This document shows, in pieces, positions 15,432-64,000 of a stretch of DNA of 64,000 nt. Each line of letters starts with the position of its first letter. Within the stretch, counting starts at the first letter, position 1. A model generated the notes under the pieces. That model had not been told where the DNA came from. It saw only the letters and a list, made by a program, of their open reading frames with translations, and did no database searches. Origin of the DNA: Camelus ferus (lineage: Eukaryota); NCBI RefSeq assembly GCF_009834535.1, contig NC_045696.1:40798001-40862000 (forward strand), read 5' to 3'. Position numbers and translations under genes: made by a program.

Positions 15432-15936
15432 GCTGTCTTGGCTAAGGATCTCCAGAGAAACAGGACCAATAGGAGGTGTGTGTGTGTGTAAAAAGATTTA
15501 TTTTCAGGAATTGGCTGACATGATTGTGGAGGCTTCTCAAGTGTAAAATCTGATGGTGGGGCTAGCAGGCTGAATGTTCAGGAAAAGGTTGCATGCAGTT
15601 CAAGCCAAAAGGCCGTCTGCTGGAACACCAGGAAGAACTGACATTGCAGACAGAGCCCAAAGTCTGTCAGCTGGAGAATTCCCTCTTGCTCAAGGGAAGC
15701 TAACGTTTTGTTCTATTCAGGCTTTCCACGGATTAGATGAGACCCACTCACATTGTGGAGGGCTATCTGTTTTACTCAGTCTACTGGTTTAAATGGAAAT
15801 CTCACCCAAAAACAGCCTTACAAACAACAAAAACAACAACAACAACGACAGCCTTACAGAAACATCCAGAATAATGTTTGACCAAATATCTGGGCACCAT
15901 GGCCCAGTCAAGTTCACACATAAAATTAACCACCAC
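15432..15936 (-). mobile_element. ERVL LTR (MLT2-like)
   Basis: tctccagagaaacaggaccaatagg...ggaattggctgacatgattgtggaggc...gaccaaatatctgggcacc...ataaaattaaccaccaca. Confidence 0.8.
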
Positions 15937-21305: not shown

Positions 21306-22367
21306 AGATAAAATATGAATATTTCCAGTTTACTGTACTAAATATGTTTTATCTGACCATATCAAATATGTTTGATCTGAAAATTATACCACTGCAGTAG
21401 AAACAAAGCATAGTTGCTTTGCAATCTGCTAGAAATCATCTCTTGCATGACTCTGTAGTTTTCAGCGTAATATATTTCCTCCTCACTGTGCTTCATGTGT
21501 AGATGATGACATGTAGCAATCCATGAAGTGGCCATGTACCACAGATGGTAACCTTACATTCTGTTATTTCTTGTGATCCAGTTGCTAAAAGATTGACACT
21601 AGTTCTCAACCATTAGTCTTGTAATTTGGCTAACATTCTTCCTAGCAGACTGATAGAAGTTCAAAGGCTGTTGCTCTGGGCTGATACAACATATGAATCT
21701 ATGATTATTGTCTTATGATTATGATACCAGGATCATGGTTTAGAACAGTTCTGTTATTCAAAATGGCTGCTAGTAAAGCTATCAGTCACACTTAAGCTTC
21801 TCCTTACAGATATAACGTGTTACACACTATATGACATTCTCAAAAAGATAAAACTATAGTGATGAAGATTAGTGGTTGCCAGGAATTCAAGGTAGGAGGA
21901 AGATGTGGCAATAAAGGGATAGAATGCAGGAGTTTTTCTAGGGTAATGGAACTGAGCTGTATCCTGATTGTGGTAGTAGTTACATGAATCTGTCTATAAA
22001 TGTCCAAAAAAGTTCATTTTACTATATGATCATTTAAAAATTAAAATAAATCCATCCCATCCAAAATGGTTTCCAGCCATTCATTGATAAGTCCAAACTG
22101 ATTTACCATTTTGTCTAAATGTTAGCAAGAAAGAAGGAAGTCTACAACTGACTATTGCTGGGTTTAAGAAAACAGTAGCTAGATCAAGAGAAGGGAATAG
22201 CTAGATCTGATTGCTGTAATTGACACCCAGTGGTTGGCTTCACTAAGAGGCATGGAGGAAAACAGAGTCTCAGGAAATAAAACTGCAAGTTCTTAATTGC
22301 TGAGGCCTCTCCCCACTTGGAGAGGCCAAGAATAAGAGCTATTTCCCTGGTTACAAAATTTCAGGGT

Positions 22368-22720
22368 GATCTCAATTGATGTAGAAAAAGCATTTGACAA
22401 AATTCGACACCTTCCATAATAAAAACACTCAACAAATGAGGATTAGATAAAAGTTACTTCAATATAATAAAGGCAATATATGAAAAACGCACAACTAATG
22501 TGCTCGATGGTGAAAGACTGAAAGCTTTTCCTCTAAGACCAGGAACAAGGTAAGGAGGCTTACTTTCACCACCTGTATTCAACATAGTCCTAAAAGTTCT
22601 ATTCAGAGCGATTAAGCAAGATAAAAAATAAAAGACATCCAAAATGGAAAGGAAAAAGGACATAAATTTTTGTTTGCAAATGACAGGATCATATATATAG
22701 GAAACCCTAAAGATTACATG

Positions 22721-22752
<32 letters not shown>

Positions 22753-24988: not shown

Positions 24989-26699
24989 ACAAAGTCTCAG
25001 GGTCAGTGTGCCATGCTTGGAATTTAGAATGGCAGATACCAAAAAGCCTTTATGAGTGCACCTGTGCTAAGCATTTGAATAAACCAAATATCAGTAAGGA
25101 AGATGGAGTGAAAATGGTGGTAGCTTTCAGCTGCAGTATCTTCCAATAAGTTAGGACAGCACGCTTTTTGTGTGAGGTTCCTGTCTTGCTAGTTTCATTG
25201 GAAATGAATAGTGTCCACATCAATGGGGAGTTTTATTAACTAGGGTTTATTGGGTTCACTAAAACAGTCCCATTATTTAGCAACTCAAAAAGTTCTTCAG
25301 CCACAGACATCTTATGTCACTACAGCACCGAACAGAACTCTGTCTAAGATGCTCTGTAGATAACTTCTTAGCACAAGGAATGCATTCTCCTGGGAACACA
25401 CTGGAGCCTCCACATGGCCCTTAAGAAGACACTGACCTCTTTGAAACTAGGACTGCAAGATCCAGGGGACTAGGGCGACTTCCAGTTGCACAGATTTTTC
25501 TGAACTCTGGTTCTCAAGAAAGACTAAATGAAGGAATCATCGGAAGACTCAAAATAGAATCTGCCACATACCAATCCTGTGAGGTAATGCATGAACTTGC
25601 GGAGGCATTAAGATGCAGGAAGGCAGATAATCTGGGCCTCTTTTAACGTGATTTATTGGCTTCTAGTAAGACTCAAAAGACTGGAAAAATTCTCCTCTTC
25701 TATAAAAATATATTAAAATATATAGACCTATTGGACTCTCTTAAACTGAAAATGATAGTTAAATCCTAGGATCAGGACTAGCACCAGCATAAGGAAGGAG
25801 TTTCCGATTCCCCAGCCTCCTTCCAGCCGGCTCAGATACTATCAGTCTCCCAGCCAATGTGGAGATGAAGTCTGTATTTCAAGATTTTCATCTTTGACCT
25901 CTTTCTGTATAAAACATAAAATAGCATCATCAGCTGTTTTAGATAGCCTATAGCTTCGTGCAAGTTTTTTAGTTCACACCAGTGAGAATTTCCCATACAG
26001 ACTGAGGTCAATTCTTGACCTCTGGAATCCTTCATATGTTATCCTCAAGGCAGTTGCCTTCTTATAAATTAGCTGTGTATTTTCTGGGATCAACCACATC
26101 CTTGGAAAACTTACTGCATCTCATCCAAGAAACTTGGCTTCCATTCTGTGCTCTCCAGAGAGAGCTGTGTGAACTTCAGGAGCAATAACTCAGGCAGAGG
26201 GTCCTCAGTGGTCAGGGAAGCCCCAAATTTGGATAAGGTTTCACTTGAATATTCATTGGCTTTAACAGTTTGGTAAAAGTAGGAGAAGATTCCTAGTTCC
26301 AAGGGGTCAAATATCCTCCCTGAAACTAAAATGGAAAAGATGAACTTAGTCATGGAAAGAATTTCATGATAAACCTAATGTCCTAGGGCCACTTTCATAA
26401 TAGTACCTCCTCTTCTCACCACTCATTTCCCTTGTGTGTCTCTTGAATAATATCATTTTAAAGGATTTAATAAAGATTTCTCTGTCAGCAGCCCAAGTCA
26501 AAGCCTCTAGAGGAAGTGGTATATTGTTTGAAAACTCCAGGGCCCTTAGTTCCAGTGAAGTGTAGGAATAAAGAGGACGTCAGAACAAGATGTCTACTGG
26601 GGACAGAGAGCCTGAGTCAACAGCTTCCTGGGATTAGGAAGAATTAAGAAACATCAGCCCAATAGAGATACTTAGACTGGGAATCAGATGATATTAGCA

Positions 26700-27007
26700 A
26701 TTACATATACAGATGGCAAATAAGCATTTAAAAGGATACTCAACTTCACATGTCATTAGGGAATTACAAATTAAAACAAGAGATATCACTACATACCTCT
26801 TAGAATGGCTAACATCCAAGCATTGACAATACTAAATGCTGACCGTGAAAAGATCAGTGGTTGCCAAGGGTTTTGGGGGGGAAGGGAAGAAAAGATGAAT
26901 AGGTGGAGCCCATGGGAGTTATAGGGGGTCTCTGGGAACTCTCTGTACTTTCCATTCAATTTTTCTGTAAATCTAAAACTTCTCTAAAACAATAAAATGT
27001 ATTAATT
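26700..27007 (+). mobile_element. L1M fragment with internal deletion
   Basis: cagatggcaaataagcat...tagaatggctaa joined directly to the 3'UTR motif gatcagtggttgcc...ctgtaaatctaaaac. Confidence 0.65.
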
Positions 27008-27143
27008 TGCGGGGGTGGGGGTGGGGAGGAGAGCTGTTGACAAGAGGGCTGGTGATGCTTATCTGTGTAAAGATAGGAGCCAGGTAGGGATTTGCATCTT
27101 CTCAATCATGTGGAGCATTTGTGTGTTTGTTAAATGGGAACCA

Positions 27144-27322
27144 AAGTGGGCTTTCTCAAAATGAGTTTCAAGAACCACCTCCATCAGAATCAACTGGGTT
27201 GATTACTAAATGCAGATTCCTGTGCCCGAACTATTGAATCAAATTCTCTTGGAGTGGAACCTAGCAATCTGTACTTAGAACGCTCCAGTGATTCCTTATG
27301 CACTTTAAGGTCTGCGACCCAT
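27144..27322. mobile_element. MER5A-like hAT-Charlie MITE
   Basis: tttctcaaa...catcagaatca...aaatgcagattcctg...gtgattccttatgcacttta. Confidence 0.65.
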
Positions 27323-28894
27323 TCGTGTACACTGTACAAACATATTAAATTGTTGGTCTTCTATTTTATTTTTGTCCACTACATTCTTATCAAATATATG
27401 TTAACAAGCCTGTGAAGAAGGAGGCTGGAGATGGAAAGAGTGGGATGGACACATACAAATTGAGACCAATTTACAACCTGTCTGGAGAAGCTTCTGAGTC
27501 TGTATCAATCAGAAATTACCAGTGGGAGATAGTTCATGAGCTTTGAGTCAAGGAGTCATAAGGGGTTTCCAGGAAGAAATGTAAAAAAAAACCCGCAAAA
27601 ACAAAAAACTGAAGTCCCCCCAACCACACACAAAACCCAAACCAAAACAGAGAAACAATATGAAAGGTGAGCATTTTCCATCATTGGTGTTACTTTCATA
27701 TATTTGTCAGATTGTGGTTTTCTTTCTACTTGAATAAATTACTGTAATTGTAACCTGAGACTGAAGTAATAAAAGTAAATGAAAGAACAGTAGGAGGGAG
27801 AATAGAATATCTTTCTCATTTGTCCCACATATGCTTGTGTAACAAACTAAGGTCCTTTTATGTTTACATATGATTTATTATTGATATTTTAGAACTTGTA
27901 GCCAGATGTGTACCTATCTGTAGCTTTCACTAGTCTGTGGCTATTAAAAGGCTCTTATTTATCTCTGGGTTCTCAGTGTCAGACACGTAGAATGTATTTT
28001 GTAAATATTTGTTTTGTTAATTAAGTAAAACAGCATCTCAGGATAGAGTCACACTCTCCATTAGAAGTGACGTTGTATAGATGAGGGTAACAGAGCAAAA
28101 CCTTGTTGATTTAAAATAAATGGAAGGGAAGACTGACAGGAAGGAAGGTTAGGGTCAGCAGCTGCAAAGAGTAAGGACAGAGATGACAATTGTCTTTAGA
28201 GCTCCCAGAGCTTGAGCATTTTTGCCAGATCACAGAATAGACCCATGATTGGGTCTGCTAATAATTATAGCCATTGTTAAGTACAGGCTTCTCCCTTCCT
28301 CTCCTCTATCCAATGTTGCTCTTATTCTCAGAAAGAAACTGATAGAATTTCTCAAAAGAGCCCACAAAGTCAGATGTAGTGAAGTCAGGCTGTGGACGTA
28401 GAAGAAATAGGATGAATTCTGGTTTTAGTGTTTGGGTGACTAAGTTTGCACAGGAATGTGATTTGCATTTTAAGTGAGTGTGTTTGCTGCCTGCTAAATT
28501 TTCCCAGCCTGTGGTATAGAGTTGAGCTCCTCTAGGTTTTTACAAACTGGGAGGAATTAGTCTCTGTTGTCTGTAGAACTAAAGGATGTCATTAGCATTT
28601 CTGAGAAACACTCTAGTAAAATTAGGAAAATTTAATTCAGTTTGGTTATTGGGCTTGTTTTTATTTGGATGAACAAAGGCATAACTTAATTAAGGCTGCC
28701 CCAGAGGGTAGCAGCAGTTTGAAGAGAAGCTGTGAGCAGTTAAGTGGCATTCATAGTATTACCTTCGACTCACCTTAAATTACTTTGGAACAAGACAAAC
28801 TAGTAAAATAAAATTATGAAGCATCTTGCATTTGAAGGAGATTTATGTTTTTTGAAATTATTTTATGTATATTAAATCTCAACAGAGAAAATCC

Positions 28895-29515
28895 CAAGTG
28901 TTGGAGATGTGCAGCAACCAGATATCTCATCCATTACTTGTGGGATTGTCAACCAGATCAACTATTTTGAACAACTGTTTGGCAGTATTTGCTAAAGCCA
29001 AACATACGTACAAGCTATGACCAAGAAATCTCAATTCTAGGTGTATACCCAGCAGAAATGAATATATCTGTTCTCCCATTCATAAAGCCAGAAGCAAACA
29101 CTATCCTAATGCCCATCAACAGAGAAATGTATAAATAAATCATGGTACTTTCATAAAACTGAATACCATACAGCAAGGAAAAGGAATGGTCCATAAACTG
29201 CACACAGTAGGGATGAATCTCATAAACATAATGTTGAGTGAAACAACTCGGGCATAAAAGAGTACATCCCATGTGAGTCCTTTTATATAAAGTTCAAGCA
29301 TAAGCAAAAGTCTATAGCATTAGAAATCAGGATAGTGAATGCTCTTGGCAGGGAGTAGTGACTTGAAGGGATGTGAGTGATATTTCTAGGGTATGGGGAC
29401 ATTCTGCTTCATGTCTTGCATGTTTATTACATGAGCATACTCGGTAAAAATGTATCAAGCTGTACACTTTCAAAATGTACGATTTTCTCTATAGTATATT
29501 CTAACATTTTGTTTT
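28895..29515 (+). mobile_element. Old L1M 3' fragment
   Basis: ccaagtgttggagatgtgcagcaac...gatgaatctcataaacataatgttgagtgaaa...gaaatcaggatagt. Confidence 0.7.
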
Positions 29516-29755
29516 TAATCTCAATAGATGCACAAATCCTAGGAAGTTGTCGAGGAAGCTATTATTATATCTCTATTTTGTAATTGAAAAAAATGAGGTA
29601 AAGAGAAGATAAATGACTTTTTCAAAGTACCTAAGTTACTTTTGACATTATTGATCAGGGCTAAAGCAGTGCTTTTTCATTGTATTGAAGGTGAAGAAAT
29701 ATTGTGCCTTGTCTTAATTGTGTTTTTTTTCCTCTTTGTAGGAAGTAATGCTTTA

Positions 29756-29851
29756 CTTATTTATTTATTTTAGAGGGGGTACTGGGGATTGAACTTGGGA
29801 CCTCGTGCTTGCTAAGCAGGCGCTCTACTGCTTGAGCTACACCCTCCCCTC
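29756..29851 (-). mobile_element. tRNA(Ala)-derived SINE (camelid Vic-1-like)
   Basis: Minus strand GGGGAGGGTGTAGCTCAAGCAGTAGAGCGCCTGCTTAGCAAGCACGAGGTCCCAAGTTCAATCCCCAGTACCCC plus (TAAA)n tail. A and B boxes present. 15-bp TSD GGAAGTAAT(G/A)CTTTA at 29741 and 29852. Confidence 0.85.
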
Positions 29852-30944
29852 GGAAGTAATACTTTAGAAATATACATTACTAGTTATATACCAACATCTC
29901 ATATACCCCAAGATGGGGGTAGAAAGAATGGAGTAAAGGTGTATTTCACGTCTCTTAGTAGAAGTAAATACAGAGTATGTAGAAGTTTATTATTCTGACT
30001 TTACCGAAAGAGATGACCATCTACAATCATTCACTAGGAAATTTTTATTCTAAATAAAACCAAAAATACCAAACCAAATAACCAATCACATCTTTGGGTA
30101 AAAATTTTTATATATACAAAATTGTATACCTAAAGCCCTCATTTTTCATGTGAGGAAAACAGTGAGAACTAAGATAACTTACGTGGAATTATCTACCAGG
30201 GCTAATACAAATATAAAGAAAAGATGATTTCCTTCACAACTAGTCTTGGTATAAATTAACTCAGACAAATTTTACAATCACACAAAGGAGTGAGAGAGAG
30301 AGTAGTAAAGAAATGGCCAGGAAAGCCAACAATCTTACACTGAATGTCCTCTTAAGCATTGTAATGTTAAAGTAAAATGTTAATTTGAAAATGGAATTAT
30401 AATTTATAAACAAACCCCCAATAGATGAGACTACTCTTCTCCTTTGTTAGTTTTAATTTTAAAGTTATCACATGACAGAGTTTATGCATTTTATTCTTTG
30501 GAATGTTTCTTTTCTTACTGGAAAGCCAGTAAATAAGTAAGGTCATCTCAAGATCTTTTTGAAAAAATTTAGACAACTAAAATCTCATTTTTTAGCAAAA
30601 TAACTATTTTCATATTATCTTCCAGATGATTAAGTATATTTACATCACAGTAATCCTAAAGTGTGTACTTTCTTTCTTTTAAAATAACAATAGCAATATT
30701 ATACATGCTGTTTGAAATATTTTCAAGTAACAGAAGTATATAAAGCAAAAGTTCTGTTCCTTTTCACTCCCACTCAGGAGTAAGCACTGTTCACACATCC
30801 ACCTTTGTTTCTTGTGTACTCATACATACACACCTACTATTTTCTCTTGTGTTACTACCACTTAACATTTGGTTGTAAACATTTTCCCATGTTTCTGCAA
30901 AACTGCCATTGTAAAGGCTCCGTAGCATTCCTTTCTGTGGATGT

Positions 30945-31430
30945 AGTAATCAGGGCTCTTAACTGTAAGTGACAGAAAGCCACTTAGACTAGCTTAACAA
31001 AAATAGAGACTTAACGGCTTGTGTAACTGGAGAGGACATGAGTGGAAGCGATGTTAGGTGTGACTGGACCCAGGTCTCAAATTATGTTTTCAGGAATGTG
31101 CCAGCTAAGTCTCTGCCTCTCTTCATCTCTTGTGTCTGCTCATGTATTGGCCTTACTCGGTTTTGCTGCAGCCAGGCTGCATGTGGCTGGCAACATGGAG
31201 CTGTATTTTTCCAGTCCTTGACCGTAAAAGCAAGAGGATGTCTTCCTAACTAATTCTAAAGGAAAATTCCTAGGAAAGAACCTGAATCAGTTCATCCCTA
31301 AACCAGTCACAGTGTACTGTGGAGACGGGACAATCTGACTGGTCACCTCGGGTCATGTGCCTATCCTTATGTTCAAGAGGGATGAAGGAGGTGAGAGGGA
31401 AGGAACACGTTGGGCAGCAAGAAATCATAC
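30945..31430 (-). mobile_element. MLT1-type LTR nested in an old L1ME-like fragment (about 30680-31650)
   Basis: ctgtaagtgacagaaagccacttagactagcttaa...ctgactggtcacctcgggtcatgtgcctatcc. Confidence 0.55.
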
Positions 31431-45843: not shown

Positions 45844-46704
45844 ACTGCCATTCTGATTTTTCTGTGTCATTCCTGTGCATTTTTTTAAAAAAAGCACAGA
45901 TGCATCTAATTAATAACAATATGTGCTACCTATTTTTAATGCCAAATATAAACGACAGCATATTTTACCTATCCTTCTGAAATCTGTTTTGTTCATTTAA
46001 CATCATATTTTCCAGATTTATCCATAGAATTACATGTGGCTCTACTTTGTCAGCATTGGTTCCAGGGCTTGCAAAAGCATTACGCTAGGTCCATCCTCCT
46101 GGGCCTGTACCCACTCCTAGGCACAGGGACAGTCAAGGGGAGAGAAAGGGCCGACCCTTTGGTGGTGGTGGTGTGGCCCGAGCTTGGATGTGGAAGCCAG
46201 GTGGCCACCCACGTGGAGTGAAGGGGAAGTACGGTGTAAAGAGAAGAAACGTGGCAGCTCTCCCTGCTTGGAACTCCAGAGTTCTAGAATTTTAAATTTG
46301 GACTTGATCTTCCACGTTGTTAAGAAGGTACGTTTATAAAGGTGGCAAGAACATATTTCCTCTACTGTTTAGCATTAAAAAAATTTTTTTTAAGTATTCA
46401 GACATAAAGTATGTGGCTTCCATTTGTACTTCTGGCCGCGCCCACAAATAGGGGTGGGCGTGCCTTTTCCTTGCATCCCACTCTTTCCTCAAATACAGTT
46501 ATTACTCTAGGAAATGACTCGACTATGGCTATCTCCCTACCTCCCCTCCTCCCTCCACTACTTAGGATTCTCAAATTTGACTTTAAGGCGACGCCGAGAT
46601 GCAACGAAGGCGCCAACTGGACGCCAAGAAAGGACGCTCCCACGGGCCTCTACTGGCACGCGCGCCCTCGCCAAGCCCCGCCCCCTGCGCCCGGCCGGCC
46701 CCGC

Positions 46705-46725
46705 GGCATCCTGGGACATGTAGTC
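46705..46725 (-). promoter_or_regulatory. ZNF143 (SBS)/THAP11-HCFC1 promoter motif
   Basis: Minus strand reads GACTACATGTCCCAGGATGCC, matching ACTACAnnTCCCAnnaTGC. Confidence 0.8.
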
Positions 46726-46944
46726 TTTGCAGGCGCCGCGGCTCACCAAGTCTCCTCCTCCAAGCGGCCTTCCGCCCCCGGGACGCCGTGAGGTTGCGTC
46801 CCTCCGGTGCCTGGCCTCTTCCCTCTTCCTTTCCCTCTTCAGAAGCTCCGTCCCAGACTTCCGAGGACCTTTTACGACATTGGGTCTGAGTCTGTCTCGG
46901 CTCCGGGTCCACTTTTCGGCAAAGTGACGTGGACGTCAATAGCA

Positions 46945-46998
46945 ATGGCGGAAGGAGAAGAGGTCCTGTCCTCTGCCAACGTCGAGCGGCGACGGCTG
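46945..46998 (+). CDS. TBC1D23: TBC1D23 first coding exon (apparent 1-nt insertion; see findings)
   Basis: gcaATGGCG Kozak context in a CpG island. Reads MAEGEEVL, then in the +1 frame PLPTSSGDGW, matching the recalled mammalian N-terminus MAEGEDV(P/L)PLPTSSGDGW. Donor TG|gtgagt at 46999. TMEM30C-TBC1D23 adjacency matches known mammalian synteny. Confidence 0.92.
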
Positions 46999-47788
46999 GT
47001 GAGTGAAAGCCCGCGTTGATTCGTATTGCCCCTCTCTTCTCCTTTGTGACCACCCTGCCCGTCCCCGAGGCACCGGCAGGCGCCGGCATGGAACGGGAAG
47101 ACCCGTCCTCGCAGCCCAGCGCCCTGCCCCGCCCCCTCTGCCTGCCCGGTCCCCTCTGCCGGCCCCGTCCTGCCCAAGGGGCTGAGGCCGGACTCCCGAG
47201 GGAGAGTGGTCTTGTCCAGGGGCTGGGCCTCGGTTTGGCCCTCCTGCTTCACCCGTCGGTTTCCAAAATGTGATGGGGAAGAGTGGCTTCACGTCTGGGT
47301 TTGGCCGGAGTCCCTGGCCCCAGGGACTCAGAGTAGGCTGGTTGGAAAGGAAGTTTCGCGGATGCAGATCTGAGGCACTGGAATACCATTTGCCGAAAAG
47401 ACTACTTGAAATTACTCCCGCGACCTTTGCCTGAGGGTTCGGAGATGAAAGATACACCCAGGGAGGATCCCTCCCACATAATCGAGATTTTTTTTTTTGG
47501 TACTAGGTTTTATTTCTCGTTTCACGTTCCAACAGTTTCCACCATTCGTCCCTTTCACACAAGTCGTCTTTTTCCTTCCTAGCATTTTCCTCACAGCTCG
47601 ATCTTCAGATGTAGGACATTGCTCTTGCTGCTCCCAAGCCCTTGTTTGCTTACCTGATTTATACTCGTGGTTGTGGGGGAGGACCTTCAGTGATTCTTTG
47701 GTAGACTTTAGTCACTCGATGTTAATCTTTGGGAAAGTCTTCTACTTTTGAAATAGTTGATCTTCACAATACACTTTTAGGGACGACA

Positions 47789-47827
47789 TCACACACACAC
47801 ACACACACACAGACACACACACACACA
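47789..47827. repeat. Imperfect (CA)n microsatellite in TBC1D23 intron 1
   Basis: CA run with one GA interruption. Confidence 0.9.
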
Positions 47828-48343
47828 AATGGAACTTTTAGAGGCTTGTCGAATTTTTACAATTGATATAAGTGTATTTACCACATGTATTAGACAGTTT
47901 TAGATTTGCTTGTTTAATCATATTATACATGTACAGCTCACTGGCACTCTGCCTAAAAATAATCCAGGACATTTTTAGACAGGGACATTAATTCTGGAGA
48001 AAGCAATGGAAATCGTTGAAAGTGATAGAAGATATGCTAATTGAGACATTCAACTCTCAGCAGATATCAGGCAAACCTTAGTGCATGCCGTCTCCAAGGT
48101 ATAGGAGGAAAACTTCGGTGACCTAGATGTAGTTTCTTTTCTCAGTTTGCTTATCTTGGGGTTGAGGGGTGTAACAGGTACACTCAATAAGCAGGTGAAA
48201 TTGCTCTGGTTCTTTGGGACAGTGAATAAAAATATATGAGAGTTCAGGCAGACAGAAACCATGTTCACTTGGAATCACTGGGTAAAGCTTCATGGAGGTG
48301 GAGGTGTTTGGATTAGGCCCTGAAGAATGAGTAGGATTTAGAA

Positions 48344-48640
48344 TAGGGCTCTCCAGTAGAAGTAGTGAGCCACATAATATAAAGTTTTCTAGTAGCTACA
48401 TTAAAAACTAAAAAGAAACAGGTGAAGTTAATTTTAATCATCTATTTTATTTAATCAAATATATCCAAAATTTTATTTCACCATGTAATCATTTAAAAAA
48501 ATACTTTTACATCTTTTTTGTACCGAATTTTCAAAATTCAATGTGTATTTTACACTTACTGTACATCTCAGTCCCGTCTAGCCGCGTTTCAGATGTTAAA
48601 TAGCCACCCGTGGTGGTGGCTAACATGTTGGATAGTGCAG
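48344..48640. mobile_element. MER33/MER3-like hAT-Charlie element
   Basis: ttttctagtagctacattaaaaa...aaacaggtgaagttaattttaat...aatagccacccgtggtggtggcta...ttggatagtgcag. Confidence 0.7.
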
Positions 48641-49713
48641 GGTCAGATTAACAGAGGAGAAAGGTCTCTGAATGAAATAGTAGCATGAGCGAGGACTAGA
48701 CAGGGAAACTAATGATTTGTTTGGTGGGTAATGACTAGAACTTCATGAAGTTTGCTGTTTCAGAAGGATGAATTTGTTGTGTGGTAAACTGGCTGTAATC
48801 AGCTGATTGAAGGCCATGAGGGGACGTATTTCTAGAGGTAAGCTGTCTTTGATGGTTGCAAGCATGTGTCTGGCTTACAGAAGCAAGAAACATGGAGTGA
48901 ATGATTGCTAGAAGTAGCATTTGTTCTCTTCTAGCGTTGAGGTATCTCTGGTGTGGCTTCCATTTTTGTTCTTTTTACTTTCATAAATGGGGAAACACCG
49001 AGTGTTCTATGATTTTTATTCTTGCTCCATTTTCTTCTGATCTTTCTCCTTTTTCTATGCTCACTGCACTCACTGGTCCCCTAGAAGGGAGTTTGAATAG
49101 AGTCAGAAAAGACTTGCAGATTTGGAGCCATGAGTTCAGTAAAGCCTATGTTCTTAGAGTGCTTGTTGGTTGGATTTTTGTAGAATGGAGAGGCTTTACA
49201 CTTAAAAAAAAATGCTGTGACATTTTTATTGTACTTTTTTTAGATAGAAAATTTTCTGAAATGTGTTATACATGTCATTGTCTAACCAAACTCATCTTAA
49301 TAATTTGGGGTCATTCAGTTTACAAATGTAAGTGTGTAAGAATAAAACTAGGTCCCTGTCCTCAAGGAATTTGTGGTCTAGTTAGAGAAGGCACACTTAA
49401 GAACATCAATTACTGTTATACTTTTGTAATACACTAAGACCTTTAGGGTCCATATAGGTAGATAGGGTAGATTGTTGCTATTTAAATGGTCCTTTATACC
49501 CATCCCTTTTTGAGATTGGTTTTTATTAGTTTTTCCTGTGTTTTTTCATTGTTGTGAGTAGTATCTCCCAGTTTGTTCTGGATCTGTGAAACTAGATAGT
49601 TGAACTTGTTAAAATTGTCTGTACATTTGTAAAAAGGCTCAGAATGGGGCCTGAAGATGTTAAAAGTATGATGTCACTTTTACTTATTTACTGTTTTTAG
49701 TTATGTTCTAGAT

Positions 49714-49880
49714 CAGGGTTTCTCAAAATTTAAATGTGCATTGGGATTACCTGGAGATCTTGTTAAAATGCAGATTCTGATTCAGTAGATTTGTTTGGGA
49801 CCTGAGAGTCTGTGTTTCTGACTGATCAGCTACTGGATGATGGCATTTGTGGTTCATGGACCACACTCTAGTTATCAAGA
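49714..49880. mobile_element. MER5B-like MITE
   Basis: cagggtttctcaaa...cttgttaaaatgcagattctgattcagtag...ggaccacact. Confidence 0.7.
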
Positions 49881-52800
49881 TTCTAGATGATATTATCTCA
49901 GAATGAGTTGGCCAGAGGAATTTATCTCTCTGTATTACATGTTATGTTGTATCACCTAACACATTATACTATATAATACATAATTATATTATAATTTATC
50001 TGATTGCATGATTTATCTTTACTCTTTAGATAGTGAGCTTCTTCTCATGGGCAGTGGCTGATGGCATGTGGCTCAGTAAATTTTTTTTGTCTAATGTGTG
50101 CATGAATGAATACAGATTTTTGTCAAATCATGTGCAATAACATACCAAGCTGTCATTTCAAATAAGTTTTCTGACTTCATTGTTTCTGTGAGCTGTGTAA
50201 TTATCTGATGGTGTAAAGCTCTTTTTTTTTTTTTTTTTATGGAAAGTAAAGGTTATCAGAAACTGTCTTGGCTGTCAAACTTTCTGAAACTGCAGCCATG
50301 TAAGTTCAGAGGGTGTGGAGAAATCCTTGTAAAAATGTTTATAGTTTGAAATGATTTAAATTTAATTAAAAAGTTAACATAAGCTACAGATTTTTAAAAA
50401 TAAATGTTAAATTATTATAGTTCAAAGATTTGTCATTATTGTTCTTGGTATTGGAGAAACCAGCTTTGGAATTGAACACAAGTTCTCATTTTCTGAGGCT
50501 TTCTTTCTGAAATAATGCCTTAAGCTCTAAAGTCATGATTGAAAAAATTTTTTTGGTATTTATATTAATTGTACAACTTTTGGTATTCTGAGTTTAGTTC
50601 AAATTTTTGTACAACTTTTCCAAAATTATTGCTAAACTTTTCTTAAAATTGTTAAGATATCAGTTCCATAAAGAAGCTTCTATTGTTAATTTGAGATGTG
50701 AATAGGAATTGTTTTGAGAATAATGGGATCTTTTTCAAAGTTTTGTTCACTTTGTGAATGGTACTCTTAGTGCTTTCCATTTCATGAGCATTGAAATAGA
50801 GATTTAAAATGTCACTTAAGGAATAGGTGATTGCAATTTCAAACATGATATAATCAATAAAGAAATACATTTAATATGAAAGAGAATGAAACCCATTGTT
50901 AAGAAGAATATTGACAGCTTGTGGTTCTAGGAAGACTAGATATTGCCTTATAGAAAATGAATAGAAAATGAACCTTGTTGGCTTGAATTAAGGGTTTTTA
51001 AGTGACAACTGTTTGATTTTGTAAACTATAAATAGAGGGCAGACAAAAATTATAAATTAAAAAGATTTATTTTGTTTATACTATTTACTTTAATATTACT
51101 ATTATAATTCAGAAGTAATTCCTAAATAATAATTCATTTCTAGAGTTTTATTCCTGTGGATGTTTTAATATCCACAGGTAAGAGTAATTGGTTTTTGCAC
51201 GCTAAAGAAATGTATTAAATTAATTTATTTCTGTTTATATGTACTCACTGCTGAGAGTACAGGTGCATCTAAGCATAGTGAGGTAATTCTGGAGCACCAG
51301 TTAAGTGTACTTCAGTACACAGCCAACTTAAGGAGTTAGGGTGGTATTTCTTTCTCATTACATTTTGGATAAAGGGGAAATTTGTAATAGAAACAGGTAA
51401 GGTACTGTTCTATGTTGACTTGTGCTGTTTTCATCCCATTCTTTGTTTGAGGCAAAGAATGTACACTATTTTCAGTTTCCAAATAAACTAGTGTTTTGTT
51501 TGGGAGCTGGGGGAAAGAGCCTGATGCATTTCTGTGTTCATTAAAGGTGCTAGAAAGTCACCTCATTTGTATAGAAAAGAACAGTATGTTGGGGACTTTT
51601 TATTTTGAGGAAGCATGGAAGAGGAAAAGGATTTAGAGCACTCTAAAGTTAACTTCTCATCAGCAGAGGAGATATTCTTCCATTTTGTAAGCAACGTCTG
51701 ACAGCAAATGCATTGCGACATTGCACATCCAGTAAAGTTATGAGCAGCTTTTTTTCCTTACACAAAAATTCCTGAGTTTTTTCTTAGCAGAGAAAGGGGC
51801 ACCATTGGTATACCATTGGTGCAATTTGATCTACATGGATTATGGGTTAAAAATAAGTGTATGAAAATTTAAAGCATCTGTTCTGTTTGTACTAGAGTTA
51901 ATTTTAGTAGTTTACAGTGCAGCATTCTGTGATATCTGTCTCCTTTGCCTGTTGCACAGTGCTGAAATATTGTAGCTATCGTGTTTGTCCTGTGAAGCGA
52001 GATCACTAGATTTAGCACCTTCTTTACTTGGCCAAGACCCTAGTTAAAGACAGATTCTACAGAGGATTACATTATTTGATAAGGGAATCTCCCAAAGCTG
52101 TTGTGCTGTTGTGGATCTGATCCTCATACATAGTTTCACTGTTTTTTTTTTTTTTTTAAGCTGGTGAATGGGGTGTTTTCCCCCTTGGTGTTCAAATAAA
52201 TTAAAATACTATAACAAGTATGTCTGATTCTGACAAGAACCCAGATAACTTCAAGATTTCATATTTAACAAAATGTGTTCTCACAGACTGTAAGGTATCA
52301 CGGTCATTTCCAAATGTGCCATCATACTATTTGTTGTTAGAATGTTTTGATGGTTTGCGATTGGTATTTAGAAGTAAGTTACATAGTATTTATTATGGTC
52401 ATTTAACTCCATCCATAGTTGCTGTACAAGTGAATCTGTAACAGAGTACTCCTATTTCCATTTCTACTAAATGTCACACAGAATATTTAGGAGTTTTGGT
52501 GTGTTAGTAATTTGTAACAAGTGTGCCAACAGTAGTAGTAGAGTAAGTTCAGACAAAGCTTTGGTGCTGCCTCATGACCTGGGCATTAAGAAAAAACCAG
52601 AAGTATGATGGTACAAATTAAGTCATGAAACCACAACTCAACATGTGCAACCTGCCACTGTTACTGTTACCCAATTAGCTGGTGCCCACAACTAGTTAGC
52701 TGGCCATTTTTAGTTTTAAATAATTGATAAGAAGCTTGTGCCTGGGCATAAAGTATCCATGGGCAAGCTGGCCTGTCACTGTTCAATCTGTACTCATAGT

Positions 52801-53451
52801 GGTTTACATTCTAAACAAACTGAAATGAACTACACCCCAAAAAGAGCCACTCCCACCTCTGTTCAGTGGTTCTTAGATAATAGGACTTGGGCTAAAACCT
52901 TGGAATAGCCAGCTAGAATGTACACTATGGCTTTATGTTTACTGCCAGGTCTCCAGTGCCTCGCACAGCGGCTAGCATGTAGTAGGTGCTCAATACATAT
53001 TCATTGAAGGTTAAAAAAAAGAATACTGTTATTAAAGAGGAAAGAATTCAGAGCATTAATTAGAGTTATGGGAGAAGTACTGACACTGAAAGGGAGAATT
53101 CTAATGAGAGAGTCTAACTTTGCAGAGTATGTGAAGAGGATGAGGACTGAGAAAGATGACTAATGACTCCTTGGTGCAGTTTTGTTAGAGTGATGGAGGG
53201 TTTGAGTGAATGAGGAGAGAGTAAGCGATGAGTGGAGACTACTGTTTGCAGGAGTTGTACCGATAAGAGTAGGAGAGAGATGACTTTTTGAAAGGGAGTC
53301 ACATATCGGACCTTTTGAATAAGCAAATGTGGAAATATTTGAGGAAAGGTGAATAATAATCACAGGCTATATTGTTTTTTATATTTTTGAATGCTAGAAA
53401 TTCTTTCAGTGAAGATTTCTGAGTCCATTTGTTCTCCTGTCTCTGTTTGAC

Positions 53452-53639
53452 ATAGTAGGCCTTCTGTATCCTTGGGTTACATATCTGTGGGTGTGGAACC
53501 CACAGGTTTGGAATCCAAGAAAATGGAGGGCTGACTATGCAGTACACCATTTTATTTAAGAGATCTGAGCATCCTCAGATTTGGGTATCTACACAGGGTC
53601 CTAGACCCAATCCTCCAAGGATACCGAGGGACAGCTGTA
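53452..53639. mobile_element. MER2/Tigger-type MITE (internally deleted)
   Basis: Ends ...gccttctgtatcc and ggataccgagggacagctgta resemble MER2 TIRs. Confidence 0.6.
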
Positions 53640-55071
53640 CTACTGCTCGCAGAGATTTGAGCAGTATCCTGTCAGTAGAAATACCGTATTTAAGGTGTCT
53701 ACATAGCAAGTGTTGGGCTTTTATTGATCTTCCCAGTAACGTGGCTTTTTTATTTTTATTTTAATCAAATAATAATGTATCTTAGACACTGACCACTTTA
53801 AGACACAAAATTAATATTTTTTTAAATTGGTAATTGGGTTTTCTCTGTAGTTTCTCTGTACTCTACATTTATGTTTAAGTAATTATGCATTTTCTAGGTC
53901 CTAAGTGATCTTTCTGAACTACTGTAATCTTTGACTTTTTTATCATTACAGGAAAGAATTAGATTTTGAGAATTTTGAAAACTAATGAAGTTGACTTAGC
54001 TTACTTGATAGACTGAGAAGCTTTATAAATTAAAACAATTTGTTTCTAATCCAGGAAACATTCTGTCTTAAGTGTTTTAGCAATTTATCTCAATATGCTT
54101 AGGTGACAAAGTGCTATTCTGAAGTTGAATAGGCTGTGGGAAATCATACAGGCCATCTAATAAGTTGCTGGGAATGATTGCTAATGGCTTACTTCTAGGG
54201 CTAAATTTCATTATTTCATATGTATGCTATTAAAAAAATTTATTGAGTGCTTATTTTGTCTTTAAAGATTTATTCTTGTCTAAATGAAGAGTGACTATGT
54301 TTTCCTACACTCATGTTTTCTCTTGTCTTGTGATTTTAGTTTTTTCCACATTTGACGATTGTCTCATTTGTGCCTCAGGATTTGTGTCACACGTACCCAA
54401 CAGTGGTTCATGTGACCAGCAACTCACTGTCTAACACACTTCTTTTTTGGGAAACAATGAATCTTTAATGTCGGTGGAGTCTTGTATGGAGACCATCCTG
54501 AAAGAGAAAGTTGGAAAGGATAAATACAGGCAAGGTATAGGCATTAGGATGGAATGGGAAGAAGAGTGCGAGGGATATTCTGTTGGAAGAGAAGATAATT
54601 CATACGCTGTATGAATACTCTCCACCTCTTTTGATTAGGTGGTATCTGGTACTCTCCCCATTTTATAGGTGGAGAAACTGAGTTTGTATTCTAGGTCACA
54701 CAGCTGTTAAATGTGTGGAGTCTGATGTCACGTTTTCTGGTTTTAAATTTTATACTATTTTCTCTGAAACATGTTGTTTCTAAGTCTTTATATTTTTAAT
54801 TCCTTGGTGTTTTTGCTCTTGAGCTGCCATAGCAATTGTTTACAAGTCTGTTCTTTTCCCACAGTGGCTGTTAACATGTAATGCTATCAATTTGAGGAGT
54901 TAAAGAGGCAAGGCAAGCCCTTATCTCCTTAACAATCTTAAGATGTGGCTCGGACCCTTCATAGTGATGCTCTCTTTTTCTTGAAATGGTAAATGAAGGT
55001 TGGCTGCAGTAGCTTCCTCTAAAAACTCTAAATCGAAGCATCTCTAAATGTTCGCCAATGAACAGTAAACA

Positions 55072-57133
55072 TTTTTGTAACATTTTATTGACATAATTCA
55101 TGTATCATAAAATATATACATTTAAACTGTACAGCCCAGTGATTTTAGTGTATTCCCATAGTTTAGCAATCATCACCATGATCTAAAGTTCAGAATATTT
55201 TCATTAACCCCAAAAAAACCTTGTACCGATTAGCAGTTCCTCTTATTCCCCTTTCACCCCAGGCCCTAATGATCTATGTTCTGTTTCTATAAACGTGCCT
55301 ATTTTGGACATTTCATGTGAATGGAATCACACGATATGTGACCTTTGTGTCTGGTTTCTTTCACTGAGGATACTTTTCCAGGTTCATGCATGTGTTACAT
55401 GTTATGAACACTTCATTCCTTTTTATTTCTTAGTATTCCAGTGTATGAATACACATTTTATTTATCTATTCATCAGGTGATGGACATTTTGTTTCTACTT
55501 TTTGGCTTTTATGAATAATACAGTACTGTTATAAATATTTACTTACAAGCTTTTTATTATGGCCTTTTTTAATGTAGTAAAATATACATAACATAAAATT
55601 TGTTTAATGTGTACAATTCAGTGACATTAAGTACATTCACAGTGTTGTGCAGCCATCACCACTGTCTATCTCTAGAATTTTTAATCATCACAAACAGAAA
55701 CTCTGTATCTAATAAACAATAGTTCTCCATTCCTCTTTACCTTCAGGCCCTGTTAACCTCTATTCTACTTTGTGTCTCTGTGAATTTGCCTATTTTAGGT
55801 GCCTCATATGAGTGGAATCTTACACTATTTCCCCTTTTGTGACTGTTTTTTTCTCACTTAGCATTTGTTTTGAGAGTTCATCCACATTGTAGCATGTGTC
55901 AGAATTTCCTTCCTTTTCAAGGCTGATTAACATTCCATTATATATATATGTACACATTTTATATATATCTATATATAGATACACACACACGTACATACAT
56001 ACCACATTTTGCTTATCCATTCATACATCAAAGAATATTTAGGTTGTTTCCACTTTTTGGTTATTCTGAATAATGTGCTATGAACATGGATGTGTAAATA
56101 TCTGAGTCCTTGCTTTCGGTTCTTTGGGGTATATACCTGAAGTGGAATTGCTAGATTATATGGTAATTCTGTGTTTAACCTTTTAAAGAGCTGCCAAGCT
56201 TTTCCACAGTGGCTGCACCATTTTGCATTCCACCAGCAATGCACAGGGATTCTAATTTCTCCATATTCTTACCCTCACTTCCCCGTTTTTTTGACACTAG
56301 ATATCCCAATAAGTTTGTTGTATTGTATCTCGTTGTGGTTTATATACAAGTTTTTGTCTGTGTATGTTTTGTATTCTCTTCAATGTATACCTAGGAGTAG
56401 AATCGCTAGATTATACTGAAACTTTTTTTTTTTTTTTTATTGAAGTACAGTCAGTTATAATGTGTCTATCTCTGGTGTACAGCACAGTATCTCAGTCATG
56501 CATATAAATACATATATTCATTTTCATATTTTTTCCATTAAAGGTTATTAAAAGATATTGAACATAGTTCCCTGTGCTATACAAAAGAAATTTTAAAAAG
56601 TCTGTTTTTATATATAGTGGCTAACATTTGTAAATCTCAAACTCCCAAATTTATCCCCTCCCACTCCCTTTCCCCGGTAACCATAAGATTGTTTACTAAG
56701 TCTGTGAGTCTGTTTCTGTTTTGTAGATGAGTTCATAGTGTGTGCCCCCACCTTTTCTTTTTTAGATACCACATATAAGTGATATCATATGGTATTTTTC
56801 TTTCTCTTTGTGGCTTACTTCACTTAGAATGACAATCTCTAGGTCCATCCATGTTGCTGCAAATCATACTGTAACTTTATTTTTAACGTTCTGAGGATCT
56901 GTTAAACCAGTTTCATGAAAGGCTGTGCCATTTTACATTCCTACCAGAAATGTACGAAGGTTCCAGTTTGTATTATGTCTTTTTGGTATTAGCCATCCTT
57001 GTGAATGTGAAATGGTATCTCATTGTGGGGTCTTTTTTCATTGCGGTTTTGATTTGAATTTCCCTAATGGCTAATGATATTGAGTGTCTTTTCATGTACT
57101 TATTAGCTACTTGCTTATCCTTTTTTGGAGAAA
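55072..57133 (-). mobile_element. Nested L1 cluster: host L1, inserted L1 (about 55560-56340) and young L1 3' end (56423-56865)
   Basis: Three successive L1 3'UTR starts. The young copy has a T-tail and TSD ATACTG(A/T)AACTTT at 56413 and 56866. Confidence 0.8.
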
Positions 57134-59834
57134 GGAGAGTCATCAGATGCTGTGGAAAGGTTAAATTAAAGTAAAGAATTTGTTATTAGAAAGGTTATTA
57201 GGAAGGAGCATAGGAAGAATGGTTCCTCTGGAGTTGTGGGTATCAAAGAGGATGGACAAGTGATGGGCAGGGGATAAGAGGAGGAGTTGAGTGGAAAATG
57301 AGGGAGAAATGGTGACATATATTGTCAAGAATACCTTCAAAAAGCTTTGCCGTGAAAGGAACAATCAAAGATGCAGTTAACTACGTGGAAGGAAAGTTTG
57401 GAGGAGCTTTTGCGGTTGTCATTGTTGATGTTGTTTCTAATAGCAGTACATAAGCATATAGACTCAGAGGAAAGAGCCAGAGGAGAAAGAGAAGTGGAAG
57501 GTAGCAGAGAGGGGGTAATTGGTGACATGTGGTTCCAGAGGAGTTGGGAGGGGGCAGGTAATACCCAGGTGAAGTTAGTCTCAGGCTAGAGAAAGGATAC
57601 CTAGACATCTGTGCATGTAGGAAAGAAGGAAATGATTCCTGGGATGATATGCAGCTTATGTTTGTTTTTGGAGAGTGGCTGAGATCAAAGGGAAGAGAAA
57701 CCTGCTGGCCTGTAGTTTCTCCTTAGAGTTAGAAGTAAATGTCACTTGAAGGAAGGTGACTGGGTGGGGAGTCTGAAGAGAGTGGTGAATAGAAGATTTC
57801 TGGGTAGCATTGATGCCTAGAAGAAATAGAAGGTGGTGAATTTATGATAGCATCATAAAGTTGTGTTAATTTGTTTTCTAATGAAGTCCTCATTGAGCAG
57901 AGCGTAGGAACAAAGAAGGCAGAACTCGTTAGATTAACCTGATGTTAGGATTTTGCAGCTTTCTGAGTGTGGCAGGAAAACAAAGGAATGGAGTTCAGGG
58001 TGTTGAGAAGGTGCTTAAAGTCTCAGGCCATGGAATTAATACTGAGGACATAAAGTGAAGCCACACGAAAGTTCTTCTAACGACTCTGTGCCACCCTTCC
58101 ACACTCTACTTTTAACTCCATACACAGGAACCATGGGGAGCATACTCTTTCTCCAAAATTAATTTTCTTCCATGCTCAACAATAGAATCAAATATTTTTA
58201 CATTTTGTAACTTCCTTCCAAGTTTATCATATATGTAAACTTTTAGAAAAGAAAACAGTTGTCAGTATGGGTTGCACTTGTTTATCTTGTTTGCATTTTC
58301 AGTATTCGGTATGGGAGAACAAAAATACATACATATGTGCCACTATGCCACATTGTATTCTTATTGATTATGTGAAATATTCTTTCTTAAGTAATAGCTA
58401 CTTAATACTTTAAGTAAAGACATACATACTGAGATTTATTATCTTTTTTCTCCTTGCAAATATTTGTTTATTTTAGAGAATACAGTTAATAATGCCACCT
58501 CTTAAAAAAAAAAAAGACAAATTAAAATGCTCCTGTAAGTACACCACTAGAAATAAGATTTTAAAATATCCTTCCCTATGTGTGTGGGAAAGAATGAGGG
58601 TGGAATGAGAATAGTATATTTTCTCTTTCAAACATGTATGCTTACATGTTAATTTTCAAACTCTTTTTCTTAAAAAATTAATACAAGTCCTTAATAACAA
58701 ACATTTCCCATGTTATGAACTGTTTTTCAGCATTTTAAACCGTTGCTTAGTATTCCATATACTGATTTAAATCAATTCCTCATTTTAGGACATTTACATT
58801 GCTTGTAGTTTTTCATAGTTAAAATAAGCACTGCTTTGACATACTTGTAACTAAATCATTTTACTCATTCTTTTATTGCTTGGTGAAAGGTGTATGTGTT
58901 AAAAAAATCCATAAATGTTATCTAAATTATTCAAGTAGGATACATACAAATATAATACATATTCTAAGTATACTCAGGTTGTACTGACTGATGCTATGTG
59001 AGAAGTTAAAAGTTTCCTTCTATTTCACTTAATTAAGTAAGCATCTTTTATGATTTTGTTTTTTGTTCTAATGGATACTGCCGTAATTCTAAATAATATT
59101 TGATGCCTATGTTACTTAACTTTTAACATTAAGGAATATTGATTATTGAATAATTCTTGAGGGAATTTGTGCTAAGGATAAGTAGGAAAAGATTAATGCA
59201 AGGAAATTTTAGGAAGTGTGTAAATAGCAAGCAGTAGAGGAGCAGCCAGATAAATTTCTCCAGCCATTAAAAATCTTATTTTTAAGAGTATTGAATGAAT
59301 CAGAGAAATATGTATGATATTTTTGAAAAACACAAATAAGTGAATCCTGCAGGGTATAAAATTATATACTCAATATACCAGTTTTTATATGTATATATGT
59401 CTCTGTACACACACAGACATATATGAAGAACTGAAAAGTTATTCACAGAATGTTAACAGTGATTATCTCATAGTAATAGAATTGTGGTTGGTTTTAAAAT
59501 ATTTTTTTACATTGGCCAAATTCTCTAAAATGATTTTGATACATTAAGAAAAAGTTATTTTTAAAAAGTCAGCTATTGTTCAGTAATAATAACGATAATA
59601 GTATTCATGTCTTCTGTTTATTGAAGAATTATTATGTTCAAAGTATTGCACTGAGTGCTTTGTGTTCAGAAATTTGTTTAAGCGTTAACTGACCCTATAA
59701 GGTAGTCACTGTGTTTCTACATACGTTACTTGCTTAAGATCACATGGCTGTTGAGTTGGGCCAATATTGGATCTCAGATCTGACTCTAAAGCTTGGATTC
59801 ATGGGCTTTTGTGATATATTGAATACAGTTGAAT

Positions 59835-60570
59835 TTAAAAAATTATGGTAGAATATGCACATAAAACTTACCATCTTAACCATTTACGTATATAGTTCAG
59901 CAGTGTTAACTGTATTCTCATTGATGTGCAGCCAGTCTCCAGAACTCTTCTCATCTTGTAAAACTGAAACTCTGTAACCCATTAAAAAACTCCTCTTTAC
60001 CCCCTTGCCTCCAGTCCTTAGCAACCACCATCCTACTTTCTATCTCTATGAATTTGTCTATTCTAAGTACCTCATATATGTGAAATTGTACCCTGTCTTT
60101 TTGTGACTGGTTTATTTCATTTAGCATTATGTCCTCAAGATTCATCCATGTTGAAGCATGTGTCAGAATTTCCTTTTCTAAGGCTGAATAATATTCCATT
60201 GTGTGTATATGTGTGTATGTGTGTGTGTGTATCTCCCCTATTTTGTATATCCATCAAAGGATATTTAGGTTGTTTCCACCTTTGGCTTTTGTGAATAATG
60301 TTATAAACATTAATGTACAAATATCTGCTCTTTCTCGCTTTCACTTTTCTTGGGCATTATATCTAGAAGTAGAATTGCTGAAACATATGTTGATACTATT
60401 TTTAAATTATTTTGTGGAATCACCATACTGTTTTCTTTAGTGACTACATCATTTTACATTTCCACTGACAGTGTACAGGGTTTCAATTTCTCCACATCCT
60501 CACCAACATTTATTTTCTGTTTTTTTGTTTTTGTTTTCTAAAATAATAGCCATCCTAATGGGTGTGAAGT
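59835..60570 (-). mobile_element. L1M 3' fragment
   Basis: Minus ORFs MEYYSAL..ASTWMNLEDIMLNEI and KRWKQPKYP-like peptides (L1 ORF2 C-terminus) plus 3'UTR. Confidence 0.85.
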
Positions 60571-62902
60571 TTTAATAGACTTGATTTTTAAATTCTTCCA
60601 GATGTCCTTGGGAAGAATGAATAATAAACAAGTATATATGTATCATACACTTAACCAATTGGACTATTGATGTTTATGTTCAAAATTAAGAGATAGTCTT
60701 AATAGCCAAAGAATTGAAACAAATCAAATGGCCATTAACTGATGAATGGATAAATTATAGTATATACATACAATAGAATATTATTTGACAATAAAAAGCA
60801 TGTACTGATACATGCTACAACATTGAAAACATTATACTAAGGGAAAGAAACCAGACACAAAGATCACATATATATGATTCCATATATAAAATGTCCAGAA
60901 TGGGTAAATGTATAGAGACAGAAAGTAAATCAATGGTTGTGAGGTGCTGGGAGCTGGGTGCTGGGGCGTGGAGAGTGGCTGATATTGGAAATGGGTTTTA
61001 AGTGCAGAAAGATATATGTAAAAAAAAATTTTTAGGAAATGGATTGTCTTGCTTTCATCTTCTGTTAGGAGTGTGTACAATTAAACTTTTCAGACATTTT
61101 GGAATTATAGGGAAGAGAAGTGTTTAGAACATGACTAGGAGTAAAACAATTTGTAAATAAAGTATATAGGGTTTCTTTTCCCTAGTGGCAGATTTTCTGT
61201 AACTTTTTAAGTTTTAGGAATGCAGCGTATGCTATAATCTAGTTGCTTTTAAAAAATGTAATTTTAAATATGATTCAATGTATGGCTTATTTGAAAAATA
61301 GTTACAAAATTTCAAATTGAATTTATTAATCCTAGAAGCATTTAGAAATGAATGTTTAATTTGGTAGCATTTGAAAATTCATATCCCTTCACCCCCTTAA
61401 CTTGCATTGTGCAAATGCTTCCATGTACTAGAAATTACTCACCATTTGGTTGAGGAAGAGAAGTCTAATTCAGTTACTAGTTTAAATATAAACATTACAC
61501 TAATTTCATGTAAATTTAGTCATATTGTTTGCCTTGCTGTAATTCTAAAGCAACTTGGGTTAACAGTGTTTATTAGATTAGGTGATTTTTGCCACAGAAT
61601 ATCAGCAATGGGGAAATTCTGCTAAGTTTTATAAAAGTTTTGAAAATATGTCATTGCTAGATCATCAACAGTAACCTGTAGTGTTATTGCACAAACATAT
61701 GTTATAGTTTCAAGGTCACAGAGTCAGGAAGAGATGCATTTCTGCTAATTTACAACCCCCAAACTTTGGATTTGCTTTGCCTTGAATCTTCTGAGCAAAG
61801 AAGACAGTTACTTACTTTTCATAATTCCTAGAATACTTCTCTATTTTAAGACCTGTCTGAATATCCAGTACATTTTTATCAACCTTTAGCTTGTGAGGAT
61901 GGTAAGAAGCCACCATAATCAAAGATTTAAAAAATCAACCCACCCAGTCATACTCTACCAGACATGTGTTTTGCTTTTGAATGTTAGGTGTTGCTTGTTC
62001 AAAAGTAAAAAGAAACTTGGTTTAGGGGAAGGAAAATTCTATTTGAGAGCTAAATGCTGTAGAGTTGTTCTTTCCTTGATAGGAAATTGACCCTTTTATG
62101 AAATATTTAACTTCATTATTTTCAGCTCTTTTATTTCTTTTACAAGCACATTTGTAATGTTGAAGATCTGATAACTGAACCTTTGAACATCGTGTTCAGA
62201 TGATAACATTACTTTTAATTATTTAGATTGTGGGAAGTGCCTTTTACAACTTGAGGTGGAGCATTTTCTGGTTTCTTGTTCATGGCTCCTGGAGACCACA
62301 TTTGCGGTTCCCTGGGGGGAAGCATCAAAGACTCCAGTAGCAGCTGTATCAACAGAGATGTGTTTGTACATTATTAAGATTTTAAAAGTACATTGAGGAT
62401 TGGACATTTTGCCCCAAAGTACTAACTTTGTTGTCTGGAATAGTAAGGGATTTGGCAAAGTTACTTCAAAAAGAAACCAAGGATTTTGCACTGAAAAATG
62501 GAAAAATTCTAGTTCTTCATTTATTTGGTAAAACAATTTTATCTCATTAAATGATGTTTTCAGTTCATTTCCTCATTTTATCATTTAAAAGTATGGTATT
62601 TATTCATCAGAGATTCCATTAAATTTTCTTTGTTTAATGGTTACAAACAATCCTTCAGATACCAACAGGCTGTCTTGTACATTTTGGCTAAATAGAACAG
62701 ATAAACTTCAGTCTTTATCAACTACGAGCCTTAATTAACTATTTCTCAGCCGTAGACTTAAAGTCTCTTTTTTTCACTTTCTGATCCAGCACTTTGGTGA
62801 CCATATAGCAAAAGAACAAAATGTTTTTTTGTGTGTAGTTACTATTTAGATTTGATTAGTTGGACATACGAATTTGTAGTATTCTTGTTAAGAAATATTT
62901 CA

Positions 62903-63010
62903 TAAATATATGTATATTCACGTATGACTGAAGAATTGTGCTGTACACCAGAAATTGACACAACATTCTAAACTGACTATAACTCAATTTTAAAAAAATC
63001 TCAAAAAAAG
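62903..63010 (+). mobile_element. Short young L1 3' end
   Basis: tgtgctgtacaccagaaattgacacaacattctaaactgactataactcaa plus A tail. TSD AGAAATATTTCA at 62891 and 63011. Confidence 0.8.
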
Positions 63011-63774
63011 AGAAATATTTCAAATTTGACCAGTGCTTTTCTGTTGAATATGATCCCAAGTGATTACATTTTCGTTTAATTCCTTTCCCTTAAGGGGGCA
63101 ACACTTTAGTAAGTTTATACATTTAAACTAATATTCTTGGAATTCTATCAATAGGGGAGATACTCTTATTGAGAGAATGTGTAATTGAAGCAATTTATTT
63201 TTCTTAAAAAACTCAAAAATGTGACAAAATCCTTATTTTTTGGTCCTAGTGGGAAGTTCTGCCATTTAGCCTGCTTTAAAGAATCTGCCTAAGTTAGGGA
63301 TTTTTACTTGTAAAAATTTAATTTCTTATATATTGTGTACTAAAATTGTAAACGGTGACTGGAACCTCAGCTTTTGAGAATTCTGAGGGAATTTAACTAT
63401 TTTAAGTGGCTGTTTCCTGGCCCCAAAACAATTCATACTTTTGTGAAAGTTTTTTTTTTAATTTATTATTTAAACCATATATAAATGAAAATAAAATTTA
63501 TTTCATACTTTTTTTCCCCTTAAACATAGTAGACTAAACATAACTGCTTAATGATTTACTTGATAATTTACTAAATGATGTGGTATTATTTTGCTTTAGT
63601 ATATAACAAATACAGTGATGCCATTAGAGTTTTTTTGTTCCTCTAACATATATTGAATTTTTACTGTAAGCCAGGCACTGCTCTAGGCATAATATCGCTA
63701 TAATTTTGTACTAAGTATTCCCATACTTTGCATTCTTGGCCCAATTTTATACTTTCCCCTTCATGCCACTGTCT

Positions 63775-64000
63775 GGCATAATGCTAAGAGTATAAATTCT
63801 GGAACCAGACTGGTAAAATTTGAATCCTGACTCCCACTTAATAAATGTGTGACTGTAAGCTACACAACCACTCTTTCCCTCAGTTTTTGCATCTGTAAGC
63901 TGGGGCCAGTGATGTAACCTATTTCGTAGGGTTATTGCGAGAGTGTAAAAAAACACATGTGAAATGTTTGGAACAGTGGCTGGCACAAAGTTAGTGCTGT
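63775..64000 (+). mobile_element. MIR SINE
   Basis: tttgaatcctgactcccactta...tgtgtgac...cctcagtttttgcatctgtaa core. Confidence 0.75.

Follow-up and report, generated by a model that had tools for sequence, protein, structure and literature searches.

We report here that the first coding exon of TBC1D23 in Camelus ferus carries a frameshift as assembled, and that the extra base responsible for it is probably spurious, a consensus error of the assembly rather than a change in the gene; the likelihood given to this reading is our own judgement. The analysis covers one window, by which we mean the whole stretch of 64,000 nucleotides, which is free of N. The frameshift is a genuine feature of the assembled sequence and lies in a correctly identified gene. 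Under our preferred explanation camel TBC1D23 would indeed begin its coding sequence with this exon, to which the assembled sequence adds one spurious base in codon 8, and we infer that this base is absent from the DNA of the animal. The animal's own exon would then contain 53 coding bases and be spliced in phase 2 to exon 2, and the product would be the ordinary Golgi tethering adaptor.

The start codon of TBC1D23 is found at 46945-46947 on the forward strand, with G at both -3 and +4. From there the coding part of exon 1 runs to 46998 on the same strand, which gives 54 nt in the assembly, longer by one base than it should be, and an exon that ends in phase 0. It is followed by the intron 1 splice donor GTGAGT at 46999-47004 (forward strand), which agrees with the consensus at 8 of 9 positions and is the top scorer among the 20 GT sites that score at least 6 in a scan of 46600-49000. 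The frame shifted by one base, which is the conserved frame, translates over 46970-46998 of the forward strand as PLPTSSGDG, followed by TG before the donor. This corresponds to codons 9-17 plus two bases of Trp18. Upstream of the start the same frame is closed by a TAG at 46940-46942 (forward strand), and the sole ATG in 46600-46944, at 46718, shares the shifted frame, and its next codon is a stop. The first-pass annotation of this DNA had placed the ATG at 46945 and the donor at 46999, 54 nt apart, had translated the ATG frame, and had described the conserved frame as closed upstream; all of this was reproduced on the sequence. Its central claim of a +1 frameshift is likewise borne out, with the two flanks matching the human N-terminus in frames one base apart.

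The identification of the gene is based on its N-terminus and on its neighbourhood. A human TBC1D23 N-terminal peptide detected by mass spectrometry, AEGEDVPPLPTSSGDGWEK..., is listed in Table S1 of PMC5529458; it reads from residue 2 onward, so that the canonical start is used and the initiator Met is removed. When compared by eye to this peptide, the ATG frame is identical at 6 of the 7 residues in positions 1-7, and the shifted frame at all 9 residues in positions 9-17, plus the TG of Trp18 (PMC5529458). For a given 10-residue word of such composition, the expected number of occurrences across the window's six frames is 7.7e-9, and therefore the match is not due to chance. Both the human N-terminus given in the first-pass annotation, which this peptide backs, and the gene name TBC1D23 that it had assigned, for which these matches and the neighbouring TMEM30C speak, stand. 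The split of the Trp codon at the donor in the window suggests that human exon 1 has 53 coding nt; among the papers listed in a literature search for the boundary of this human exon, none mentions TBC1D23. The start-codon morpholino target of zebrafish tbc1d23, listed in S4 Table of PMC7274447, matches by eye 11 bases that span the ATG at 46945.

Human TBC1D23 (UniProt Q9NUY8) is an adaptor that tethers golgin-97/245 to WASH at the Golgi, and the camel sequence, which shares with it the residues described above, differs in having Glu at residue 6 and the extra base in codon 8. The later domains of TBC1D23 (TBC, rhodanese and PH) fall beyond the window, in whose 64 kb no convincing motif of exon 2 was found, and the camel gene is known here from exon 1 alone. 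Searches of PDB sequences with the read-through peptide and with the peptide as written returned one weak unrelated match each and no TBC1D23; a guess would be that the first residues, which are disordered, are missing from the deposited chain. The N-terminal peptide motif was absent from the main texts reached by a literature search. In the supplements of PMC10362333 the TBC1D23 peptide encountered is internal only, and a search of the supplements of PMC4770386 gave no result.

To which base the shift can be attributed was addressed by a scan in which single bases were removed. Deleting any one base of the interval 46965-46969 (forward strand) leaves residue 8 as the sole mismatch to human, while deletion of a base outside this interval, on either side, leaves at least two. 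The first-pass annotation had singled out T46969 as the extra base. We agree that one extra base is present, but T46969 is one of five candidates. Residue 8 becomes Leu if 46968 or 46969 is deleted, and unlike in human TBC1D23 it is never Pro, whichever single base is removed. A perfect 5-nt tandem pair at 46963-46972 encloses the interval. A homopolymer or microsatellite context, which is typical of consensus errors though not required for them, is not seen here apart from this pair, as the longest run of one base in 46962-46998 is 2. Programmed +1 ribosomal frameshifting of the antizyme or Ty type depends on site motifs in which a slip codon is followed by a stop or a rare codon. No such signal was seen at the site, where codons 7-10 of the ATG frame read, by eye, Val, Leu, Ser and Ser, with no stop.

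A CpG island covering the promoter and the first exon of TBC1D23 extends over 46601-47200, where three 200-nt bins show a GC content of 0.59-0.72 and an observed/expected CpG ratio of 0.74-0.96. Within it, the promoter motif ACTACAnnTCCC is found on the reverse strand at 46713-46724, the sole match in the window on either strand, which we take to be of the ZNF143/THAP11 type. A GC-rich tandem repeat with an 18-nt unit in 2.5 copies is present in intron 1 at 47126-47170.

We used TMEM30C (CDC50C), which lies upstream, both as a synteny marker and as an error control. Its last five coding exons span 3488-13308 on the forward strand (3488-3589, 4852-4939, 5325-5465, 10402-10611 and 13118-13308), with AG/GT boundaries and an open frame of 732 nt. 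From the end of TMEM30C to exon 1 of TBC1D23, on the same strand, the distance is 33.6 kb. On mouse chromosome 16 the order is Nit2 at 57.157, Tbc1d23 at 57.169 and Tmem30c at 57.266 Mb, in a table that is not a full gene list (PMC7298343), and TMEM30C is thus found alongside TBC1D23 in the camel as in the mouse. The five exons encode 243 residues; 240 of them agree with the alpaca record (P0004) and 242 with the dromedary record (P0003). At all three positions that differ from alpaca the window carries the dromedary residue, and the TMEM30C residues therefore point to an Old World camel. In the dromedary model, which has 261 residues, the part that corresponds to the first ~90 residues in alpaca is missing, and 9 residues are inserted at the last junction; the model is probably mis-predicted. 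Intact TMEM30C records exist in the databases for many mammals; human TMEM30C is a pseudogene. No frameshift was detected in the 732 coding nt of TMEM30C, an outcome that has a probability of 0.48-0.93 at Q30-Q40, and the power of this control to reveal a raised local error rate is low. A search for database proteins in which TMEM30C is fused to TBC1D23 gave 9 matches among 2668 candidates, none of them named TBC1D23 or with a recognisable TBC domain.

The first-pass annotation had put a consensus error first among its explanations, and this ranking is reasonable. One argument for a consensus error is that the lesion is isolated. Both flanks still encode the human N-terminus, and donor, start context and CpG island are all intact, which implies that selection has acted on the exon until at most very recently. 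With no decay around the lesion an old gene loss is unlikely, and the base would be either very young or not real. That biallelic frameshifts in this gene lead to PCH11, a pontocerebellar hypoplasia, in people (PMC12206363) also speaks for an error. Short indels that shift the frame are the commonest consensus error of long-read assemblies, whose accuracy rises from Q30-35 to about Q40 on polishing (PMC8081667). For an assumed 33 Mb of coding DNA, Q40 and Q30 translate into about 3,300 and 33,000 errors, respectively, with all error types counted. A human genome has some 100, in order of magnitude, true loss-of-function alleles, and the ratio of the two numbers is a prior, not a measurement. 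There are also points that count against an error: the site has no homopolymer, TMEM30C has no frameshifts, and the loss of TBC1D23 is survivable.

It might be that the base is real and belongs to a rare loss-of-function allele of the sequenced animal, probably heterozygous, which was picked up by the haploid consensus. We consider this unlikely. The message of such an allele would be read out of frame from codon 8 and end prematurely, and the other allele would supply the protein, a situation that is compatible with PCH11 being recessive and its carriers normal (PMC12206363). The undecayed flanks suit a young allele as well as they suit an error, and the extra base completes the perfect 5-nt tandem pair, a pattern that could have been made by replication slippage. 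However, by the allele number given above, a genome carries far fewer alleles of this kind than consensus indels, except in the best assemblies, and a literature search found no paper with both TBC1D23 and Camelus. That the base is real and moreover fixed seems to us decidedly unlikely. The camel lineage would in this case have recently lost the normal TBC1D23 start and would live without the protein or restart downstream, for example at the ATG at 47088. A pseudogene of very young age, with the base fixed and no protein made, we regard as extremely improbable. The frameshift at codon 8, for which we find no rescue in the window, would agree with it, and so would the viability of fly nulls (PMC6595604) and the existence of inducible knockout mice, which were examined at 4-8 weeks (PMC11914254). 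On the other hand, the loss of TBC1D23 leads to a severe brain disorder in humans (PMC12206363), and exon 1 is without a second lesion or drift. A unitary pseudogene would be expected to drift in its coding sequence, its splice site and its promoter; in exon 1, to which our observation is limited, all 9 residues after the lesion are unchanged, the donor still agrees with the consensus at 8 of 9 positions, and the CpG island shows no damage.

The other form of a fixed base, in which the shift is compensated, is in our view highly improbable. Compensation could come from an early indel or a shifted acceptor in exon 2, or from a restart, either at the ATG at 47088 with the donor at 47270 or at a near-cognate codon. 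The crystal structure shows residues 1-13 to be disordered (PMC7274447), so that a changed N-terminus might be tolerated. In the old frame, however, codons 9-17 have not changed, which leaves little time since the shift. The first-pass annotation had proposed a non-AUG or downstream start as one way of compensation, and for this our scans of the window gave no supported rescue. Five near-cognate starts are found in the shifted frame, all of them behind an ATG in strong context (G at -3 and +4); the two that come after the lesion have C at -3. One downstream candidate, itself unsupported, is an exon at 47088-47269 on the forward strand. Its ATG has G at both -3 and +4, and 60 open codons lead from it to a phase-2 donor at 47270, which is weak (6 of 9 positions). 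This candidate sits in the CpG island, inside intron 1. Pairs of this kind are common, as 10 of the 19 ATG-donor pairs that start in 46600-49000 are in phase 2, and the 60-residue product matched none of 286 database candidates (longer proteins) at E<=1, although this is weak evidence. No alternative donor or internal exon that fits was found within the window either. Among 10 GT sites in 46962-47119, three have the needed phase; two of these come after a stop, and the remaining one reaches 3 of 9. A compensating internal exon was sought in a strict scan of 47030-64000, which gave six candidates, none of which cancels the shift; the control stretch 14000-31000 likewise gave six, none compensating.

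When compared to known systems, the camel site shares with the long-read consensus indels described by Rhie et al. 2021 (PMC8081667), for example in TLK1, that a single short indel is found in an otherwise intact and constrained coding exon. It differs from these indels (PMC8081667) in the lack of a homopolymer, and it is judged to be an error here from sequence alone. Biallelic frameshifts in TBC1D23 cause PCH11 in people, and those affected are born alive (PMC12206363). If the camel base were real, it would be an early frameshift in the same gene, as in PCH11 alleles such as c.511_512delTT p.F171Qfs*8 (PMC12206363), but it would lie much closer to the start, at codon 8; unlike that allele (PMC12206363), it is so far read only from an assembled sequence. 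If the base is an error, the TBC1D23 annotation has to be corrected, and reads should be consulted before any single-base frameshift in this genome is taken as a gene loss. A base that is real and fixed would mean a healthy mammal that lacks, or re-routes, a human brain-disease gene. This would offer a direct test of how essential golgin-to-WASH tethering is and of whether TBC1D23 can do without its N-terminus.

Public sequencing runs contain the region as well. The segment 46400-47700, or part of it, is contained in 20 of the 24 runs listed (10 studies), with a best share of 0.94 of the sampled words and none at 1.0. One private difference would limit this share to near 0.976 and the missing words cannot be placed, so the share was not counted as evidence. 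Five runs recorded as RNA contain 0.22-0.78 of the sampled words of 46400-47700, which was not counted as evidence of expression.

Elsewhere in the window, a Pfam search with two pieces of L1-like reading frames gave nothing above the cut-off. These frames, at ~19700-21200 on the reverse strand and 22400-23550 on the forward strand, are broken, presumably resemble L1 ORF2, and are found in opposite orientations with opposite AT skew.
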